Shown one piece after another: positions 20,629 to 38,052 of a stretch of DNA of 64,000 nt. The DNA lies in contig JAZDJQ010000004.1 in NCBI GenBank assembly GCA_043803765.1, forward strand, positions 14,893 to 78,892. The letters are read 5' to 3'. Source of the DNA: Candidatus Iainarchaeum sp. (GTDB taxonomy: Archaea; Iainarchaeota; Iainarchaeia; Iainarchaeales; VGJJ01). Each line of letters starts with the position of its first letter. Positions within the stretch are counted from its first letter, which is position 1. The notes under the pieces were generated by a model. That model was given only the letters and a program-made list of their open reading frames with translations, ran no database searches and was not told the origin of the DNA. A program made the translations under genes and the position numbers.

Positions 20629-21651
20629 ATGCACTGCCAACGATGCACACGAGAAGGAGTTATCATCTTGCCCTACGGCCCTCATTTCCTGTGCGAGGAA
20701 CACTTCCTCTATTTCTTTGAACACCGCATCCGAAACGTGACCCGAACGAATGCTTTTTTCAAAAAAGAAGATCGAATCGCTGTTGCCGTATCGGGGGGAA
20801 AAGACTCGGTAGTAGCACTCAATCTTATCAAAAAAATAATGCCACGAAACGAAATAATAGGAATAAGCATTGATGAAGGAATTGAGGGTTATCGAAACAA
20901 GGCGATTGAAGAAGCAATAAAAAATTACAAAAAACTAGACATTCCCTACAAAATTGTCCAACTCAAAAAAGAAATAGGAAACACCATGCAGGAAATCGTG
21001 CAAAAAACAAACGAAAACAAATGGAAGGAAAACAGTTGCACTTTCTGTGGAGTATTCAGGAGAAAATACATCAACAAAACTGCACGTGAAATAGAAGCGG
21101 ACAAATTGGTAACAGGACACAACCTGGATGATGAAGCGCAGAGCATATTGATGAATATCACCACGAATCGGATGGAAAGACTATCCCGAATGGGGCCCAA
21201 AGTGAAAACCATGGAGTTAAAGGAATGGGTTCCCCGAGTAAAACCATTGTACGACAGCCCTGAAGAAGAAGTAGAACTGTTTGCACGAATGATGAGGTAT
21301 CCTTTCTATGGGGACGCATGCTGTCCATTCTCACACGGAGCAGACCGAAATATTTATCGAATGATGATTGACCAAATGGAAATGAAAAAACCGGGAAGCA
21401 AACAGGGAATCATCAAAAGCTTTTTACAAATGAAACCATTCATCGAAAAAATGGACTCCGCTCAACAATTACAATCCTGCAGCACGTGCGGAGATTTAAG
21501 CTCCCAACAAAAATGCCAAGCATGCCAATTCGAAAAACGCATACGTGAAACGGTTATCCGCTCGCCCAGTACAAACCCGCATTCCGACTCTCTGGAAAAG
21601 AAAAAAAAACAAAATGAATTAGTGAGTCCTGCGACCGGTCACTGCGGGTGA
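20629..21651 (+). CDS. tRNA 2-thiolation protein, TtuA/Ncs6 (TIGR00269) family
   Basis: SGGKDS PP-loop, CTFCGVFRR, TGHNLDD, N- and C-terminal zinc fingers. Confidence 0.9.
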   Translation: MHCQRCTREGVIILPYGPHFLCEEHFLYFFEHRIRNVTRTNAFFKKEDRIAVAVSGGKDSVVALNLIKKIMPRNEIIGISIDEGIEGYRNKAIEEAIKNYKKLDIPYKIVQLKKEIGNTMQEIVQKTNENKWKENSCTFCGVFRRKYINKTAREIEADKLVTGHNLDDEAQSILMNITTNRMERLSRMGPKVKTMELKEWVPRVKPLYDSPEEEVELFARMMRYPFYGDACCPFSHGADRNIYRMMIDQMEMKKPGSKQGIIKSFLQMKPFIEKMDSAQQLQSCSTCGDLSSQQKCQACQFEKRIRETVIRSPSTNPHSDSLEKKKKQNELVSPATGHCG

Positions 21652-22301
21652 AGTTGTGTTTTTTTCCCTAATGACTTTATAATATCCTTTAGCCTCGGAT
21701 CCCTGCTGAGTTTTCCTCGAATGAGATAAAACAGACTCCGCACCTGCTGCGGGGTGAGCCCCATCTCACTGATCTCCTTTTTCGTCGGAAAATAACCTTT
21801 CAACATGACATGAACAAAGAAATTGTGTTGTTTAGAGCTTAGGATTTTCTTGGCTACCTTCTTGACAAAATCGAGGGAATCCTTCCATTCCCCCACACGC
21901 GAAGGATTAGTAACCGGGCGAGCCCAAAGAGAACGAATACCTTCTCCCGTTATCTCTCTCGAGGCTGTTCTCTGTTTTTTCATCCTCTTGAGCCACTTGG
22001 GAAGCTCCGAATTCAGAACGATATCGATAAATGTGGTAACCGCCCCACGCGAGGGGTCATACTTTCCAATATATCGCAAAAGCATATTCAACGCTTCCTG
22101 TTCCAATTCCCTGCCTTTAATACCCACTCCTTTCGCACGAGAGTAATAATCATTTTTCTTGCAAAAAGACCTAACATATGAAACATGCTCGGGCAACGTT
22201 TCACGAGTCAGGATTCTTACCCCTCCCCCGCTGGGACGTGGAACCACAGGTCCTCTTTTTCCACTCTTTCCCCGCACAACCCGTTGACGTCGAGGAATCA
22301 T
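21639..22301 (-). CDS. Sigma70-like protein (region 2 plus region 4) with Arg/Pro-rich leader
   Basis: ELEQEALNMLLRYIGKYDPSRGAVTTF and LSSKQ..TKKEISEMGLTPQQVRS..GKL; GGTGG RBS before ATG 22301; TTTAAG TATA-like box upstream. Confidence 0.65.
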   Translation of the reverse strand: MIPRRQRVVRGKSGKRGPVVPRPSGGGVRILTRETLPEHVSYVRSFCKKNDYYSRAKGVGIKGRELEQEALNMLLRYIGKYDPSRGAVTTFIDIVLNSELPKWLKRMKKQRTASREITGEGIRSLWARPVTNPSRVGEWKDSLDFVKKVAKKILSSKQHNFFVHVMLKGYFPTKKEISEMGLTPQQVRSLFYLIRGKLSRDPRLKDIIKSLGKKTQLHPQ

Positions 22302-22387
22302 ATCCAATCCACCTGATGAAATACCATCCGTCCGTTAGATGGACAATTGACCTTAAATGCTTTCCTTGCCACCCTCATTAGGAAGAG

Positions 22388-22459
22388 AGCCCCGTAGTCT
22401 ATCGGCTAGGATGCCACCTTGACATGGTGGAGGGGGCAGTTCGATTCTGCCCGGGGCTA
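22388..22459 (+). tRNA. tRNA-Val(GAC)
   Basis: Acceptor AGCCCCG/CGGGGCT, anticodon arm CCACC-TTGACAT-GGTGG, T loop TTCGATT. Confidence 0.93.
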
Positions 22460-22595: not shown

Positions 22596-24053
22596 ATGCC
22601 CAACCAGGAAGCTATCGTAGAGAACATCCGAAAACTCAAGGAAATGGGATTAGAGGACGAAGACCTTGTTCATGAATTGGAGAATAGTGGCATCCCCAAA
22701 ATCCAAGCGGAACGATGGGTAAGGGAATCAAAAAACCTCACAACCAATGAAAGACCACACGAAGAAAACATTACTCCCAAACTCATTCCACCCAAACAAG
22801 AAACCATTCCAACCTATTCCGCACCGCGCCCGCAAGAATCAATTGAAAAATTATGGGAAAAAGGAATTTTGGCAACAGTCGATTCAAAACTATCCCAAAT
22901 GGAGAAATTGAAAAAAGAATTAGACGACGTGATAGAAAAGCGAGTAAATGCACACTACGAGGTTATGGAAAAAAAACTCGAAACATTATTTCAAGCACAA
23001 CGAGAACTTTTTCGCTTTAAGATGGACGCACAGATGGACGCCAAAGTAAAAGACGTGGAAGAAATACTCAACCAAAAAATAGACGAAATACGAAACATCA
23101 ACACGGCAACACAAGAAGACTTGCAACGGATTAAAGGACAGAAAATGATCATCACCGAACTAGTAGCTGACTTAAGCACCAAAACAAAACAATTGGAAGA
23201 AACACGAAGAGAAATAATGGATGAAACGGCAAAAAAACTAGAAGAACTACAAGAAAAAATAGACGCTTTACTTGATGAGACGGATGAACGCATCCGAGGA
23301 GTAGAACACCGGGCAACCAAAACACTAGAATTAGAAGAAAAAATCACCATCGGATTAACCGAACAGGTAGAAACACAAGCAAACCGAATACTCGAAGACC
23401 GAGTAAAAGACTTGAGACAAGAAATAAAGGACGAAATCATTCAACTCAAAAAAATGGGAGCAGACCTATCATCCAAAGATATTCAAGCAACACTGCAGGA
23501 GTTTGCCAATATCAATCTAGAAATGAAAAAAACAAAACAGGATATCGAAGGGATGGTATTACGCAAAAGTACGGATATTGATGCTGCGTTAGAAAAGAAA
23601 ATGATGGACGTAGACAAAATAGTAAACACAAAAATGGAAACCATTGTCACTATGAAAGAAAAAGATTTCTTCAAACGCATCGAAGAACAAGCAGGAGAAA
23701 TGGCTACCGCCCAAAGGGAATTAGGACAAAAACTATTAGAAGGAGAAACAAAAATACAGAATCTAGACACGTATACAAAACAATTCCTTGAAACGCTCAA
23801 AAAAGCAAACCTAGAAAGAGAAGACCAGCTCACCGATTTTAGGAAAAAACTAGAAGAATTCGAATCACGCGCAGGAGAAAAAATGGCACTTCTAGAATCA
23901 CGAACCAAACAACTCGATATTATTGTAAGCCAATTATCCCAACTCATGATTCAATGGAAAACACAAATGGATACAACAAAAGAAACAAATAAAAAACAAG
24001 AAAATCCAGCAACACAAGAAAAGAAAACAGGATTCGGAATATTCGGAAAATAA
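22596..24053 (+). CDS. Long coiled-coil protein
   Basis: E/K-rich heptads over about 400 aa; start ATG 22596 (track start overlaps tRNA-Val). Confidence 0.75.
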   Translation: MPNQEAIVENIRKLKEMGLEDEDLVHELENSGIPKIQAERWVRESKNLTTNERPHEENITPKLIPPKQETIPTYSAPRPQESIEKLWEKGILATVDSKLSQMEKLKKELDDVIEKRVNAHYEVMEKKLETLFQAQRELFRFKMDAQMDAKVKDVEEILNQKIDEIRNINTATQEDLQRIKGQKMIITELVADLSTKTKQLEETRREIMDETAKKLEELQEKIDALLDETDERIRGVEHRATKTLELEEKITIGLTEQVETQANRILEDRVKDLRQEIKDEIIQLKKMGADLSSKDIQATLQEFANINLEMKKTKQDIEGMVLRKSTDIDAALEKKMMDVDKIVNTKMETIVTMKEKDFFKRIEEQAGEMATAQRELGQKLLEGETKIQNLDTYTKQFLETLKKANLEREDQLTDFRKKLEEFESRAGEKMALLESRTKQLDIIVSQLSQLMIQWKTQMDTTKETNKKQENPATQEKKTGFGIFGK

Positions 24054-24182: not shown

Positions 24183-24254
24183 GGGCGCTTGGCGCAACGG
24201 TAGCGCGCTTCCATGGCATGGAAGAGGTTGGGGGTTCAAATCCCCCAGCGTCCA
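24183..24254 (+). tRNA. tRNA-Ala(GGC)
   Basis: Acceptor GGGCGCT/AGCGTCC with G3:U70, anticodon arm CTTCC-ATGGCAT-GGAAG, T arm GGGGG-TTCAAAT-CCCCC. Confidence 0.95.
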
Positions 24255-24308: not shown

Positions 24309-24365
24309 GGGCGCGACTTTTCTTTTCTAAAGAAAAGGGGTGCGTTCCGAATCCCCCAGCGTCCA
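24309..24365 (+). repeat. Degenerate partial duplicate of tRNA-Ala (16-bp direct repeat of its 3' end plus GGGCGC 5' end)
   Basis: aatcccccagcgtcca at 24239-24254 and 24350-24365; GGGCGC at 24309-24314. Confidence 0.75.
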
Positions 24366-24366
24366 C

Positions 24367-24705
24367 TTACTCTTTTTTTGAAAAACACGCGCAGGGCTTT
24401 CCACGGAGCCGACGCTTTTGTTCAGCAAGTGAATCAATCAACTCATCCTGGAAAGCAAGCCCTTTGGCGTGGCGCTTTTCCAAAGGAGATTTGTGCGCGC
24501 AGCCCCGTTTCTCCATTTCCACAACCAACGCATCATGACGCTTAAATAAGGCACGCAGTTTCCCCGCCCAGCGCTTTGTTTCGGGATGATGCAAATAACC
24601 TTTCTTTTTGTTCACATAAATTGACCAGATGGCATGCAGTTCGCGGTGCTCCCCAAGCAAGTGGACGCGACAAAGCCGACTAGGTGGAATATCCCAGATA
24701 CGCAC
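24367..24705 (-). CDS. Pyrimidine dimer DNA glycosylase / T4 endonuclease V family
   Basis: MRIWDIPPSRLCRVHLLGEHRELH, HPETKRW, RHDALVVEMEKRG. Confidence 0.85.
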   Translation of the reverse strand: MRIWDIPPSRLCRVHLLGEHRELHAIWSIYVNKKKGYLHHPETKRWAGKLRALFKRHDALVVEMEKRGCAHKSPLEKRHAKGLAFQDELIDSLAEQKRRLRGKPCACFSKKE

Positions 24706-31474: not shown

Positions 31475-32122
31475 ATGAACCTGCCATTGGACAAACGCCT
31501 CAAACGCCAATCCCACCGAGATATCGCCCGTTTGCAGGATGTATTGGTTCAGATAGTCTATGACCTCGAACCCGGAGCCGTCATGCATGGCGGAACCGCC
31601 ATCTGGAGATGCTTCCATGGAAAAAGATTTTCCGAAGACGTTGATTTCTATCTATCACCCAAACCCAATTTTCAAGAGAAGTTCACCCAACAACTGGAAA
31701 AGGAGGGAGCGGTTCTTATCAAATATAGGAAAACGGCGAATGCCATCTATTCGGTGATACGAAGAGAACGGACGGATGTTTCATTCGAAACCACGTTCCG
31801 ATCATCCAAAAACCCCGTGGCATCCAATTACGAAAAAAGCGATGGAACATTCCTTACGGTACTCACGCCAAGCCCGGAAGAACTACTCATAGAAAAAATC
31901 ACCGCATTCCAAAACAGGAAACTCATCCGAGATATTTACGATGTCTATCACTTGAGTGTTATTGCTAATCTCCCAACAACCGAACGAAAAATACTGTCCA
32001 AAAAATTATCTACTCTCCCGAGACCGATTGACGAAGAAAATCTCCAAAACATCCTCCTCGAAGGAGCCGTTCCCACATTCAACCAAATGATTGATGCCCT
32101 CCAACGGAGGCTCCACGCATGA
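31475..32122 (+). CDS. AbiEii/AbiGii-family nucleotidyltransferase toxin (type IV TA)
   Basis: HGGTAIWRCF..RFSEDVDF, EKITAF..RKLIRDIYDV. Confidence 0.85.
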   Translation: MNLPLDKRLKRQSHRDIARLQDVLVQIVYDLEPGAVMHGGTAIWRCFHGKRFSEDVDFYLSPKPNFQEKFTQQLEKEGAVLIKYRKTANAIYSVIRRERTDVSFETTFRSSKNPVASNYEKSDGTFLTVLTPSPEELLIEKITAFQNRKLIRDIYDVYHLSVIANLPTTERKILSKKLSTLPRPIDEENLQNILLEGAVPTFNQMIDALQRRLHA

Positions 32123-32725
32123 CTATTCCTCACGAGATCATTGAACATTTCAAGGAATGGCCTTGCTTCACGACTCGTGACGTGCAGCTCTGGCTCAAAA
32201 CCAAAAAAAAAATCCAAGGAATACGTCAAACTGCTCCTGCATACTCTCATCCAAAAAAAGAAAATCCAATCCATCAGAAAGGGAAATTATACGATGCAGG
32301 AGGACCCCATCGTGGCAGGATTCATCTTCCAGCCATTCTACTATGGACTTCATTATGCCCTATCCTACCACCGGCTATGGACACAAGCAACCAATCCGGT
32401 CATCCTCACCACCAAGAACGTCCGACGAGGAGTGCGCGAAATGATGGGAACCCGTTTCGTCCTGAGGCACATTTCACGAAAACTCTTTTTCGGCTATGAA
32501 ACTATTCAGCAATACGATTACTGGATACCCGTATCTACCGTTGAAAAAACGTTGATTGATTTCGTCTATTTCAGACAAAAAATACCAGCGGAAGCCATGG
32601 AAAACATCCTGCGAAAAACGGACACGGAAAAACTGAAAAAATTATTGAAAAACGTTCCTGCGTGGACACGGAAAAGAGTAATGAAAATAGTGAAAACCGA
32701 CCACGAAATTATTCCAAAGAAATAA
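32119..32725 (+). pseudogene. AbiEi-family antitoxin, frameshifted at A10 (32203-32212)
   Basis: wHTH start in 32119 frame, remainder (YYGLHYALSYH..VSTVEKTLID) in +1 frame; A9 restores frame; ATGA overlap with toxin. Confidence 0.75.
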
Positions 32726-34146: not shown

Positions 34147-37100
34147 ATGGATGGGAATGAATACAAAGAAGCACGGTTTGAACGACCTGAGGAGACGGAG
34201 ATTGCCTTCACTACGGGAAAAGGAGAAGCCAATCCATTCATCCCAAAATTCGAGGAATTCTTTTCTACGTTAGAGTATAAGAAAAAAATAGAAAAACTCG
34301 CGCACGAATACCCGCAGGAGCGTTCCCTCATTGTAGATTTCAACGATTTGGATTCGTTTGATTACCAACTAGCAGAAGAATTAATGGAGCACCCGGACTT
34401 GCTCATGGAAGCAGCCAAACTCGCTGTACAAAAAATAGAAGTATCCGTATTGCAGTTGGATTCATTCACTCCAAACGTGCGCTTTCGTAACTTACCCAAA
34501 GATAAACAATCACTCGTACGGGATGTGAGCGCTGCACAATTGGGAAAACTCATTTCAGTAGAAGGAGTCATCCGCCAAGTAACAGAAGTCATGCCCAAAC
34601 TCAAAAATGCCACATGGCGATGCAGAAGATGCGGAAACACATACCTTATTGCACAAGACGGACATCAACAAAGAAAACCGGTATTGTGCAGCTGCAAGAA
34701 CAGGGACTTTGAACTCGTTCCTGAAGAATCGCGATTCGTGGATTATCAAAAAATACAAATACAGGAACCATTGGAAATGCTGAAAGGAAGCGAACAAGCA
34801 GTAAATCTAGATGTATACATCGAAGACGACTTCGTGAACAAAGTGTACCCGGGAAACCGAACTCAAATTACCGGAATCCTACGATTGTATCCACCCAACA
34901 AGGATAAGAAAAACGTGTACGGACGATATTTAGAAGCCATTCACTTAGAAGAAACAGAAAAAGAATTCGAGGACATTATCATTGAGGAAGAGGAAGAACA
35001 AAAAATAAAAGAATTAGCCAAAGACCCAGCCATTTACCAAATGCTCGCGCAGAGTATCGCACCCGCTATTCACGGGCATGATATTGTAAAAGAAAGCATC
35101 GCATTGCAATTATTCGGAGGAGTAAAAAAGAACATCCCGGGAAGCACCACAATAAGGGGAAACGTACACGTGCTATTAGTAGGAGATCCGGGGACGGGAA
35201 AATCGCAGCTGTTGGTCGCCGCGGACCGAATCGCTCCCAAATCGGTGTACGTGGCGGGAAAAACAAGCTCAGGAGTTGGACTCACGGCAAGTGCAGTTAA
35301 GGACGATTTTGGAGAAGGAGGATGGACGCTCAAAGCAGGAGCACTCGTGCTTGCGAGCGGAGGAATGGTGATGGTGGACGAATTTGATAAAATGGAGTGT
35401 TTGACCGGAGATTCCCTCGTGTGCACTGAAAATGGAAAACTTGCCCCCATCCAAACCATTTTCGAAGAATCCAAGAAACATGGAAGGATTGAGACAACTG
35501 CAAAGGGAACAAGCGTCCGGGATATCCAAAACCAATTCGTTTTATCCATGAATGCACAACTGAATATTATCAAACGCCGAGTGGTGGCCGCGCACGAATA
35601 CCCACATGATGGAAGAATATTGCAAATACGGTTGCAGAGCGGGGAAAAAATCAACGTGTCCCCCAACCACCCGTTCTTTACTACAACGGATAAAGAAGTA
35701 AGAACGATTAAAGCAGGTTATTTGCAAAAAGGGAGTTTTATTCTCGTTCCAGCAGCACTTCCAAACGAAGAATCCGAGGACTCCAATACATCATTAGCAC
35801 GACTATACGGATACTTGGCAGGAGATGGGAATGTCACCTACAATCCTCCCGAAAACTATATGATCCGGTTCACCAACAAGGACCCGGATCTCCTAGAAGA
35901 CTTCAACCGTTGCTGTACGGACGTGTTCAGCAAACCGACCATTTACCCGAGTGAAATCAGGGAAGGCGGACTCTCTTCTACTCGCGTAAACGGTCAATCT
36001 CACGTAGACCACATTGCTCAACACGCCCCGGGACTGATGGAAAAATACAGTGACAAGTATTCACCCAATATTCCATTCCTATCAGAAGATAATGCCATTC
36101 ACTACCTGCGCGGACTCTTTGACTCAGAAGGAAACGTGGACATCGTGCACCAACAAGTATCTTTCTCCTCGACGAGTGAGCGAATCACCATGGAAGTCAA
36201 AACCCTCCTGTTGAAGTTAGGAATTCTTTCCCAGATACAATACAAGAAACCACACGAAAAACGCCGAGCATCCTACAGCCTGCGAATCACCGATTCGGAG
36301 TCCATTGCCAAATTTTCAGCAAAAATAGGATTTACCAGCACACGAAAACAAGGCGCACTCATGAAATTCACTCCATCATCACGAGAGCACAGCGTTCTAA
36401 ATATCATCCCGCACATCGGCCCTCTCCTAAAAGACATCCGGACAGGACTTGGTCTGTATCAAAAAGAATGCGGATTGAACGCAGCCACTTACCATAATTT
36501 TGAGAGCGGACAGGCAAATATCACCCTGAAAAAGGCCCGCAAGGTACTGGAAGTATTCAAGGCCCACCACCAAACAAACCTTTCTCCAAAAATTCAGCAA
36601 AAAATACAGTATTTTGAGATGTTGGTAAATGGCAACGTTCTCTGGCGAAAGGTGAGCGAGGTTAAAGAAGTAACCCACTCTCCTGCGCACCGGATAAGCT
36701 ACCAGCAGACCCACCAGATTAATCACCTCCTTTCCACCATTGGTTTTCCAAAAATAGCACAAAAAAATATGAAGAAACAAATCCCATTGATTATGGAAAA
36801 ACTGAAAACAAAACAGTCACGCATTCATTCACTATTTATGAAAATAGAATGGAAAGAGGAAAATATTCGAGATGCAATCGCAAACGAGTCCATCCCCCAC
36901 TCCATGATTGCCAGCGACTTAGGGATACACCAATCCACCATCTCACGGTGGATTGGAAGACAGACCACGCCCCACACCTTTACCCCATATGATACAATCC
37001 CAATACTAAAAAAACACCTGTGCAAACAAAATGAACAGATTAAGGAAGTTATCCCATTACTGGAAAATGCCATTGCCACTCCAAAAACTAGGATATATGA

Positions 37101-38052
37101 TTTAACGATTGAGGGCGACCACAACTTCATCGCCAACAATATCATCGTACATAATTCCGAAGACCGAAGCGCGATGCACGAAGCAATGGAACAAGGACAA
37201 GTAAGCGTAGCAAAAGCAGGAATCGTAACACGATTCAAAACCGACACGAGCGTTCTAGCGGCCGCCAACCCCAAACTATCACGATTTGACACGTACAAAC
37301 CATTTTTCGAACAAATTGATTTACCCGCATCCCTCATCTCACGATTCGACTTGTTCTTCATGATGCGCGACACATTAGACAGAGGAAGAGATGAGACGAT
37401 TGCCCACCACATTCTCGCCACGCATCGAGCAGGAGAACAACTATTACAATATCAACGAGGAATAAAGCAACGAATATCAAAAGAAGTGGAAGACCTCAAA
37501 CAAAGCGTATTACCCATCATTAATACGGAATTATTACAAAAATACATTTCATACGCACGACAAAAAGTATTCCCCATGCTCACCGAAGAAGCCTCACTAG
37601 CACTGCAAAACTTTTACGTAGGACTGCGAGACCAAGGAAGGCAGGCAGGAAGCTATTCCGCAACCGCACGACAACTCGAAGGACTCGTACGATTAGCGGA
37701 AGCATCCGCACGCGTACGACTAAGCGAGGATGTAACGATTGATGACGCTGAACGCGCCATCCGATTAGTAAGAACATCATTAGAAGATGTGGTAAAAGAC
37801 CCCGAGACGGGAAGAATTGATATTGACATTGTAACAAGCGGACAAACCCAATCCTCACGCGACCACATGCGCGTTATCACCGACATTATCAAGAGCAAGA
37901 GCAAAGAAATGGACAAGGTCCCCATACAAGATGTTATTGCGGAAGCCCTCTCAAGAGGAATTGATGAAGAGAAAGTAAGGGAATTCATCCAAAAATTGAA
38001 AAAAGCAGGAGAAATATACGAACCCAATCACGGGTTCCTAAAAAGCGCATGA
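34147..38052 (+). CDS. mcm: MCM replicative helicase containing one intein (about 715 aa mature)
   Basis: Zn finger, GDPGTGKS Walker A, VDEFDK Walker B, AAANP, SRFD, ATARQLE. Confidence 0.97.
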   Translation: MDGNEYKEARFERPEETEIAFTTGKGEANPFIPKFEEFFSTLEYKKKIEKLAHEYPQERSLIVDFNDLDSFDYQLAEELMEHPDLLMEAAKLAVQKIEVSVLQLDSFTPNVRFRNLPKDKQSLVRDVSAAQLGKLISVEGVIRQVTEVMPKLKNATWRCRRCGNTYLIAQDGHQQRKPVLCSCKNRDFELVPEESRFVDYQKIQIQEPLEMLKGSEQAVNLDVYIEDDFVNKVYPGNRTQITGILRLYPPNKDKKNVYGRYLEAIHLEETEKEFEDIIIEEEEEQKIKELAKDPAIYQMLAQSIAPAIHGHDIVKESIALQLFGGVKKNIPGSTTIRGNVHVLLVGDPGTGKSQLLVAADRIAPKSVYVAGKTSSGVGLTASAVKDDFGEGGWTLKAGALVLASGGMVMVDEFDKMECLTGDSLVCTENGKLAPIQTIFEESKKHGRIETTAKGTSVRDIQNQFVLSMNAQLNIIKRRVVAAHEYPHDGRILQIRLQSGEKINVSPNHPFFTTTDKEVRTIKAGYLQKGSFILVPAALPNEESEDSNTSLARLYGYLAGDGNVTYNPPENYMIRFTNKDPDLLEDFNRCCTDVFSKPTIYPSEIREGGLSSTRVNGQSHVDHIAQHAPGLMEKYSDKYSPNIPFLSEDNAIHYLRGLFDSEGNVDIVHQQVSFSSTSERITMEVKTLLLKLGILSQIQYKKPHEKRRASYSLRITDSESIAKFSAKIGFTSTRKQGALMKFTPSSREHSVLNIIPHIGPLLKDIRTGLGLYQKECGLNAATYHNFESGQANITLKKARKVLEVFKAHHQTNLSPKIQQKIQYFEMLVNGNVLWRKVSEVKEVTHSPAHRISYQQTHQINHLLSTIGFPKIAQKNMKKQIPLIMEKLKTKQSRIHSLFMKIEWKEENIRDAIANESIPHSMIASDLGIHQSTISRWIGRQTTPHTFTPYDTIPILKKHLCKQNEQIKEVIPLLENAIATPKTRIYDLTIEGDHNFIANNIIVHNSEDRSAMHEAMEQGQVSVAKAGIVTRFKTDTSVLAAANPKLSRFDTYKPFFEQIDLPASLISRFDLFFMMRDTLDRGRDETIAHHILATHRAGEQLLQYQRGIKQRISKEVEDLKQSVLPIINTELLQKYISYARQKVFPMLTEEASLALQNFYVGLRDQGRQAGSYSATARQLEGLVRLAEASARVRLSEDVTIDDAERAIRLVRTSLEDVVKDPETGRIDIDIVTSGQTQSSRDHMRVITDIIKSKSKEMDKVPIQDVIAEALSRGIDEEKVREFIQKLKKAGEIYEPNHGFLKSA
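35398..37155 (+). mobile_element. 586-aa intein with LAGLIDADG homing endonuclease in MCM
   Basis: Starts CLTGDS after DEFDKME, ends IIVHN before +1 Ser (SEDRSAMHEAMEQ); YLAGDG and YLRGLFDSEG motifs; NHPF block B. Confidence 0.95.

Follow-up and report, generated by a model that had tools for sequence, protein, structure and literature searches.

Can a bacterial-type sigma factor be encoded in an archaeal chromosome and, if so, what would it do there? In the accepted view, initiation of transcription in Archaea needs no factors other than TBP, TFB and TFE. The question is raised by a stretch of 64,000 nt from Candidatus Iainarchaeum sp. (assembly GCA_043803765.1, contig JAZDJQ010000004.1, positions 14,893 to 78,892), hereafter called the window, in which a preliminary description made from the letters alone had pointed to a gene resembling sigma-70 regions 2 and 4. 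Profile searches and structure models confirm that the product of this gene (21639-22301, hereafter the sigma-like gene) is a diverged, ECF-like (extracytoplasmic function) member of the sigma-70 superfamily, with a sigma2 and a sigma4 domain.

Sigma-70 kinship of the protein

With curated family models, the NCBIfam profile TIGR02937 (sigma70-ECF) aligned residues 42-199 of the window protein to its positions 13-162, out of 165, with an E-value of 1e-5 and a score of 25.2 bits, the cut-off being 42.9. Pfam Sigma70_r2 matched at E 0.077 (13.2 bits, cut-off 24), so that the Pfam check proposed in the preliminary description came out below threshold for this family, as did TIGR02937. The orthologue described below, P0002, matched TIGR02937 at E 6.7e-10 (38.8 bits, same cut-off). 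A hidden Markov model (HMM), A6, was then built from 45 ECF-like sigma factors of bacterial, viral and metagenomic contigs, the query protein being left out. Among all six-frame open reading frames (ORFs) of the window, the sigma-like ORF was its sole match (E 1.3e-6). When the archaeal pair formed by the window protein and P0002 was aligned to A6 with hhalign, a probability of 95.2% and an E-value of 2.6e-8 were obtained over residues 62-208, an alignment that covers the sigma4 stretch (residues 136-208). Finally, all PDB sequences were searched with a three-sequence profile, which gave 14 matches, 12 of them sigma factors (best E 0.0065). RpoS, SigI, SigH, SigK and SigE were among them, and most aligned through region 2.

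Structure prediction led to the same family. The AlphaFold2 model of the full-length protein had a mean predicted local distance difference test (pLDDT) of 80, with values above 95 for residues 31-110 and of 81-90 for the C-terminal domain. Compared with the PDB by Foldseek, its best 50 matches were all sigma factors, at a weak E-value (top E 0.036, probability 0.95). Alignments to sigmaA, sigma32 and sigmaE covered about 230 columns, with low template modelling (TM) scores owing to a different orientation of the two domains. A model of the sigma2 domain on its own reached a pLDDT of 94.8, and its best 50 PDB matches were all sigma domain 2, with TM-scores of 0.58-0.66 and a root-mean-square deviation (rmsd) of about 2.1 Å over 70-73 columns; the E-values of this second search were weak as well (around 1), because the domain is short. 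The best superposition was on 3ugp_A (TM 0.63, rmsd 2.1 Å, 73 columns). The viral structure library BFVD returned mostly phage sigma factors (best E 7.5e-4). The sigma2 fold is therefore supported by the domain-only structural search, and sigma4 by the profile alignment, hhalign and the full-length model. TIGR02937, hhalign, the A6 HMM, AlphaFold and Foldseek agree on the homology and fold of both regions, which bears out the first reading of the letters, and the suggested AlphaFold check on the monomer also found the sigma2 fold.

The closest known class is that of the ECF (group 4) sigma-70 factors (TIGR02937; Sigma70_r2 + Sigma70_r4_2), such as E. coli sigmaE (6jbq) and M. tuberculosis sigmaH (6jcx). 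The window protein has their layout of sigma2, linker and sigma4 in about 200 aa, their motif (D/E)L.QE...L....(K)(F/Y)DP.(R/K)...TF and their C-terminal helix-turn-helix. Unlike them, it scores below thresholds, is highly charged, and is extended by a basic tail at the N-terminus and by one more conserved helix at the C-terminus; its gene has no adjacent anti-sigma gene and lies in a host where a bacterial-type RNA polymerase (RNAP) is not expected, and the Q-E pair of region 2.2 varies within the archaeal pair. With TFB and TFE only a functional analogy is possible: neither family turned up in the Pfam, NCBIfam, PDB-profile or Foldseek searches of the window protein.

The extra C-terminal helix, DPRLKDIIKSLGKK, lies outside the canonical sigma4 domain, yet it is the best-conserved segment between the two orthologues (71%). 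In hhalign it aligns with the FEDKGLREYL tail of a 207-aa ECF-like family, presented below.

The protein is also extremely basic. Its net charge is +30 and its isoelectric point (pI) 10.7, and its charge density ranks second among 64 window ORFs, after ribosomal protein L15e. The orthologue carries +28, and the viral and bacterial relatives +1 to +2. In the window protein the first 32 residues contribute +9, and the highest Kyte-Doolittle mean over 11 residues is 0.15 within the N-terminal 45. The basic character of this tail is common to P0002, despite a sequence identity of 25%. We conclude, from composition and hydropathy, that the Arg/Pro-rich leader is a basic tail with no Sec- or Tat-type signal.

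A variable slot in an archaeal chromosome

The window belongs to a bona fide archaeal chromosome, with archaeal genes on either side of the sigma-like gene and a gene order found again in three independent assemblies. Its families include L15e, RNase P Pop5, proteasome alpha, SBDS, LSm and exosome Rrp4/41/42, as well as MCM with an archaeal winged-helix domain, topoisomerase VI A/B and a geranylgeranyl reductase. No rRNA was found by Rfam in the 64 kb. On one side, the sigma-like gene is convergent with a gene for a PP-loop (TtuA/NcsA-like) tRNA thiolation protein, whose 3′ end overlaps it by 13 nt; on the other, it is divergent from tRNA-Val(GAC), as initially described. The features of the locus are collected in Table 1.

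Table 1. Coordinates of the sigma-like gene, its parts and its neighbours (window positions unless stated).
Feature	Position	Strand	Basis or remark
Coding sequence of the sigma-70-family-like protein	21639..22301	-	220 aa + stop from ATG at 22301 (ORF list)
Alternative TTG start of the sigma-like ORF	ORF 21639..22307	-	
N-terminal basic, Gly/Pro-rich tail, residues 1-30	22212..22301	-	Predicted disordered, pLDDT 51-66
Sigma2-like domain, residues 31-117, including the ELEQE...KYDPSRGAVTTF...KWLKR block	21951..22211	-	pLDDT >95
Linker, residues 118-135, poorly conserved	21897..21950	-	pLDDT <50 at 118-125; 20% identity to orthologue
Sigma4-like helix-turn-helix domain, residues 136-200	21702..21896	-	pLDDT 81-90; TIGR02937 to profile position 162/165
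C-terminal extra helix DPRLKDIIKSLGKK, residues 201-220	21642..21701	-	Helix 202-217 in model
Shine-Dalgarno-like GGTGGA	22308..22313	-	6 nt upstream of ATG, read from sequence
Oligo-T tract TTTTGTTTTTTTTT (minus strand)	21601..21614	-	25-38 nt past the sigma-like stop, in 3′ end of convergent gene
TATA/BRE element CCTTAAATGC	22351..22360	+	About 27-30 nt upstream of tRNA-Val
tRNA-Val(GAC), bounds the variable slot	22388-22459	+	ARAGORN + Rfam; same tRNA bounds the slot in L007, L020, L021
Convergent PP-loop (TtuA/NcsA-like) tRNA thiolation gene, other slot boundary	20629..21651	+	Pfam ATP_bind_3
Coiled-coil gene	22596-24053; L007 2-868; L020 17912-19420; L021 18003-19505	+ (window)	

Relatives of the protein were sought with HMMER in an exhaustive search of 1.84 billion cluster representatives, and only two were found: P0002 (221 aa, 42% identity, E 7.6e-34) and P0003 (168 aa, E 6e-4), the second of which is dealt with in the next section. 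P0002 is an intact homologue in the same slot of a second archaeon. On its JGI contig (L007) the gene is again divergent from tRNA-Val(GAC), and the coiled-coil protein also found in the window comes next after that tRNA. By contig walking, the syntenic region was reached in two further assemblies, a 325-kb Logan contig (L020) and GCA_964427715.1 (L021, 288 kb). Both keep ParA, LSm, tRNA-Ala, the coiled-coil gene, tRNA-Val and an orthologue of the PP-loop gene. In L020 the sigma-like gene is absent, and 44 nt separate the PP-loop stop from tRNA-Val. In L021 the slot is filled by an unrelated gene of 221 aa. The gene being missing in one relative and replaced in the other, we conclude that it is dispensable and behaves as accessory cargo; its neighbours persist without it.

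Pairwise identities of the coiled-coil protein are 89-94% within the set of L007, L020 and L021, and 67-68% when any of the three is compared with the window, so that the window organism is the outgroup. Among L007, L020 and L021, homology ends sharply about 55 nt upstream of tRNA-Val, which marks the slot, as judged from these alignments, as a recombination-prone site. The ancestor shared by the window organism and the L007 clade thus probably already had the sigma-like gene, which was later lost or replaced in the L020/L021 branch.

An archaeal TATA-like box had been attributed to the sigma-like gene. This element, CCTTAAATGC, does not vary between the four genomes (the window, L007, L020 and L021), and neither does its distance from tRNA-Val, with or without the sigma-like gene. 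Its conservation in genomes devoid of the gene means that it is the tRNA-Val promoter, and the attribution has to be withdrawn; its sharing with the sigma-like gene as a bidirectional promoter is possible. The ribosome binding site fared better, since a Shine-Dalgarno-like GGTGGA does precede the ATG, albeit at a position that is not conserved in L007. Past the stop codon, the oligo-T tract is likely an archaeal terminator of the sigma-like gene, judging from its sequence and place.

Constraint on the gene was estimated from the two orthologues. Between the window and P0002 genes, pS was 0.80 and pN 0.43. Synonymous sites being saturated, no estimate of omega (dN/dS) was retained. Both ORFs are intact, at 220 and 221 aa, and their identity is uneven: 45% in sigma2, 42% in sigma4 and 71% in the C-terminal tail (aligned codons), compared to 20% in the linker and 25% in the N-terminal tail. 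For a neighbouring gene, pN was 0.22. This suggests that the sigma-like gene is evolving faster than its neighbour, by a factor of about 2.5, and is still constrained.

No anti-sigma factor gene lies beside the sigma-like gene, whose neighbours are the PP-loop tRNA thiolase, tRNA-Val and the coiled-coil protein. Nor were sigma-like paralogues found in the window or at the syntenic loci of the relatives.

Other parts of the window vary among relatives too. The coiled-coil protein (485-502 aa), with a very highly conserved core (FRFKMDAQMDAKVKD...), is itself conserved and adjoins tRNA-Val in 4 of 4 related genomes; it matched no Pfam family. Between its gene and tRNA-Val, L020 (19469-20197) and L021 (19555-20304) carry an AlaX-like (tRNA_SAD) gene that is found neither in the window nor in L007, and this patchy presence shows further rearrangement around tRNA-Val. 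A partial copy of the 3′ end of tRNA-Ala(GGC) recurs 111 nt downstream (24221-24254 and 24332-24365, 17 nt exact, GAATCCCCCAGCGTCCA) and directly adjoins a pyrimidine-dimer DNA glycosylase gene (24367-24705, minus strand). The duplication looks like an att-type scar, and relatives carry differing genes after tRNA-Ala. Between the methionyl-tRNA synthetase (MetRS) and MCM genes lies an AbiEii toxin gene (31475-32122, plus strand, Pfam E 5.9e-20), followed by its probable AbiEi partner (32141-32725, plus strand). L018 has this AbiEii/AbiEi pair too. The interval holds a PIN-domain pair in L021 and nothing in L020, and is therefore another variable slot. The MCM helicase gene itself (34147-38052, plus strand, 1301 aa) contains an intein with a LAGLIDADG homing endonuclease; relatives L016, L020 and L021 have an intein-free MCM of 716 aa at the syntenic position.

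Relatives in viruses and mobile elements

P0003, the second relative, is encoded on tailed-virus contigs (L001-L006), just after a divergent packaging module (terminase, portal, Mu F) and before an SNF2 helicase gene. Among isolated viruses, the portal protein of the P0003 virus is closest to those of haloarchaeal tailed viruses (Hardycor1, 38.5%). Its terminase is about 51% identical to those of Methanoculleus viruses, and about equally close to those of Rhizobium phages. Judging from these proteins, the virus may infect an archaeon. Searched by tblastn against 50,697 phage genomes, P0003 gave only marginal matches to cyanophage sigma factors, and the window protein gave no match.

The next nearest group is the 207-aa ECF-like sigma family (P0005-P0123), found on IMG/VR contigs and in metagenome-assembled genomes (MAGs) of many phyla. 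At one of these loci (L015, 9860-10516) the gene stands beside genes for a serine recombinase, a PDDEXK nuclease, AAA_24, a helicase and a primase-polymerase. The 207-aa protein hardly differs between MAGs placed in widely separate bacterial phyla (loci L008-L015), and its spread suggests either that a mobile element or virus is broadly distributed or that contigs were binned wrongly.

The virus and mobile-element sigmas (P0003, P0005-P0123 and the phage sigmas of BFVD) are thus the nearest relatives of the window protein in both sequence and structure. P0003 and the 207-aa family at L015 are, like it, small sigma2+sigma4 proteins, and they are encoded at the start of replication or early modules. 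These sigmas are near-neutral, lie on viral or integrative elements and mostly reach the Pfam Sigma70_r2 threshold. The window gene differs in lying on a chromosome with no such element about it, and it has diverged much further. These similarities make the mobilome the most likely source of the archaeal gene.

Other searches added little. A word-index homologue search returned the query only, and the three-sequence profile added one sigma of 194 aa. In a scan of GTDB genomes, ECF-like sigmas were found on bacterial MAG contigs only, with no archaeal relative. Metagenomes scanned with the coiled-coil neighbour gave nothing, and with the sigma pair only the known L007 contig.

Recent integration at tRNA-Val was considered and rejected: no att-like repeat of a tRNA-Val fragment was found around the sigma-like gene, and its composition is not anomalous (GC 46.5%, within the local 600-nt range of 37-49%).

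Possible functions of the protein

We favour, with about even confidence, the view that the protein is a mobilome-derived, stand-alone transcription regulator that binds DNA or another nucleic acid. The archaeal lineage would have acquired the gene horizontally, most likely from the pool of virus and mobile-element genes; the only detectable relatives outside the lineage appear to head the replication modules of tailed viruses and integrative elements. It would then have been held as single-gene cargo in the variable slot between the ttuA-like gene and the tRNA-Val promoter. In the protein, the sigma4 helix-turn-helix would read duplex DNA, and the conserved sigma2 loop KYDPSR..TTF, presumed equivalent of the ECF-sigma loop that holds the flipped -10 base, may keep a contact with nucleic acid. 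Its strong positive charge, its basic N-terminal tail and its C-terminal helix would supply the affinity or the partner contacts that bacterial sigmas get from core RNAP. A stand-alone regulator is favoured because of the extreme charge, the absence of the Q-E pair from the orthologue, the lack of a conserved partner gene and the dispensability of the gene.

Several points weigh against this reading. Bacterial sigmas generally do not bind promoters unless core RNAP is present, which makes the stand-alone activity of the sigma-like protein an assumption. The case for selection comes from two orthologues with saturated dS. The viral origin is based on a weak similarity (P0003, E 6e-4), and the nearest kin of the P0003 viruses span archaeal and bacterial (Rhizobium) viruses. 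Lastly, related cassettes may have entered the same hot spot independently, as an alternative to vertical descent.

It is possible, if unlikely, that the protein is instead a true sigma-type factor of the archaeal RNAP. By analogy with phage sigma factors in bacteria, the gene would have been inherited from an archaeal virus that used it to seize host transcription; sigma2 would sit on the clamp coiled-coil of Rpo1 (A′) and sigma4 on the flap/wall, and initiation would be redirected or modulated. The clamp coiled-coil is a universally conserved site, used by bacterial sigma2, Spt5/NusG and TFE. Docking there would agree with the complete sigma2-linker-sigma4 architecture, modelled with high confidence, and with the residues E65-L66-E67-Q68-E69 of the window protein, which we take to stand at the place of the core-binding residues D403/Q406/E407 in region 2.2 of sigma70. 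In sigma70 the Q-E pair of this region touches the beta′ clamp helices. It would also agree with the position of P0003 as first gene of the early/replication module of a tailed virus with archaeal-virus-like portal and terminase, and with the published rpoS-like genes of DPANN viruses (PMC12647753). However, the Q-E pair is kept neither in the orthologue (ELLTAA) nor in P0003 (ELEGRA), and the gene is dispensable in close relatives. The high basicity also speaks against docking, the relatives being near-neutral; RNAP-bound sigmas, too, are not known to be so basic. A wider version of the proposal looks doubtful at present: the window protein and its relative from a probably archaeal virus would both bind the clamp coiled-coil by way of sigma2 and give initiation a new programme, as a sigma-type mechanism of Archaea that was spread by the archaeal mobilome and domesticated here.

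The gene could also be a relic, devoid of function, of some mobile element or virus, lying beside the tRNA-Val promoter and on its way to being lost. The variable slot and its sharp boundary, the loss in L020 and replacement in L021, an evolution faster than that of the neighbours and the residence of the relatives in mobile elements would all suit a remnant. We nevertheless find this improbable, as neither copy is disrupted and their lengths match although synonymous sites have diverged to saturation, and their conservation is focused on the folded domains and the C-terminal tail rather than even. The ordinary GC content and the lack of flanking att-like tRNA-Val repeats argue in the same direction.

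An effector delivered into a bacterial host or prey, where it would bind bacterial core RNAP, had been proposed as well, the leader being thought to fit such a role. The sigma fold itself is the sole support for export. The leader, predicted to be disordered and carrying +9, lacks a hydrophobic core, and neither a signal peptide nor any hydrophobic segment is present; no secretion or delivery genes were found near the sigma-like gene among the window families. Together with a single accessory gene whose core-binding motif differs between orthologues, this makes an exported effector very improbable. The chance of an assembly or binning artefact, i.e. a bacterial gene on a chimeric contig, is negligible, given the archaeal genes within 1.5 kb on both flanks, the overlap with the archaeal ttuA-like gene, the orthologue in the same slot of an independent JGI assembly and the collinear neighbourhood in L020 and L021.

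The preliminary description went further and suspected an undescribed cross-domain system for hijacking transcription. That the gene is sigma-like and archaeal is supported; such a system is not supported, what is seen being one gene, in a slot whose content varies, that two related genomes lack and that has no conserved partner. The novelty was overstated too. Castelle et al. (2021) had described sigma-70 family genes (fam00359) in DPANN, especially Woesearchaeota, for which mis-binning was ruled out and anti-sigma factors were lacking (PMC8204110), and divergent rpoS-like genes were reported in DPANN viruses and a DPANN prophage (Nat Commun 2025, PMC12647753). Compared by description, fam00359 likewise consists of archaeal sigma-70-like genes with mis-binning excluded and no anti-sigma factor. 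Its proteins are recognisable by standard annotation, whereas the window protein is not, and has one orthologue among the 1.84 billion representatives. The viral rpoS-like genes, again compared by description, are sigma-like, highly divergent from known rpoS and part of the mobilome of small archaea; they are auxiliary genes on viral genomes, whereas the window gene is in a host chromosome. Reviews of transcription in Archaea liken sigma to TBP/TFB in function only, and TFE and sigma2 share the clamp coiled-coil of RNAP (PMC7289017).

The phenomenon is thus known, and the locus adds to it a very divergent, highly basic and lineage-restricted member with a documented pattern of gain and loss. 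It offers a compact test case, with a minimal sigma2+sigma4 protein, one orthologue, presence/absence variants and a remote viral cousin. If the protein binds the archaeal RNAP, the sigma-clamp interface would be portable across domains. If it binds DNA alone, it would show how the sigma scaffold was converted into an ordinary regulator.

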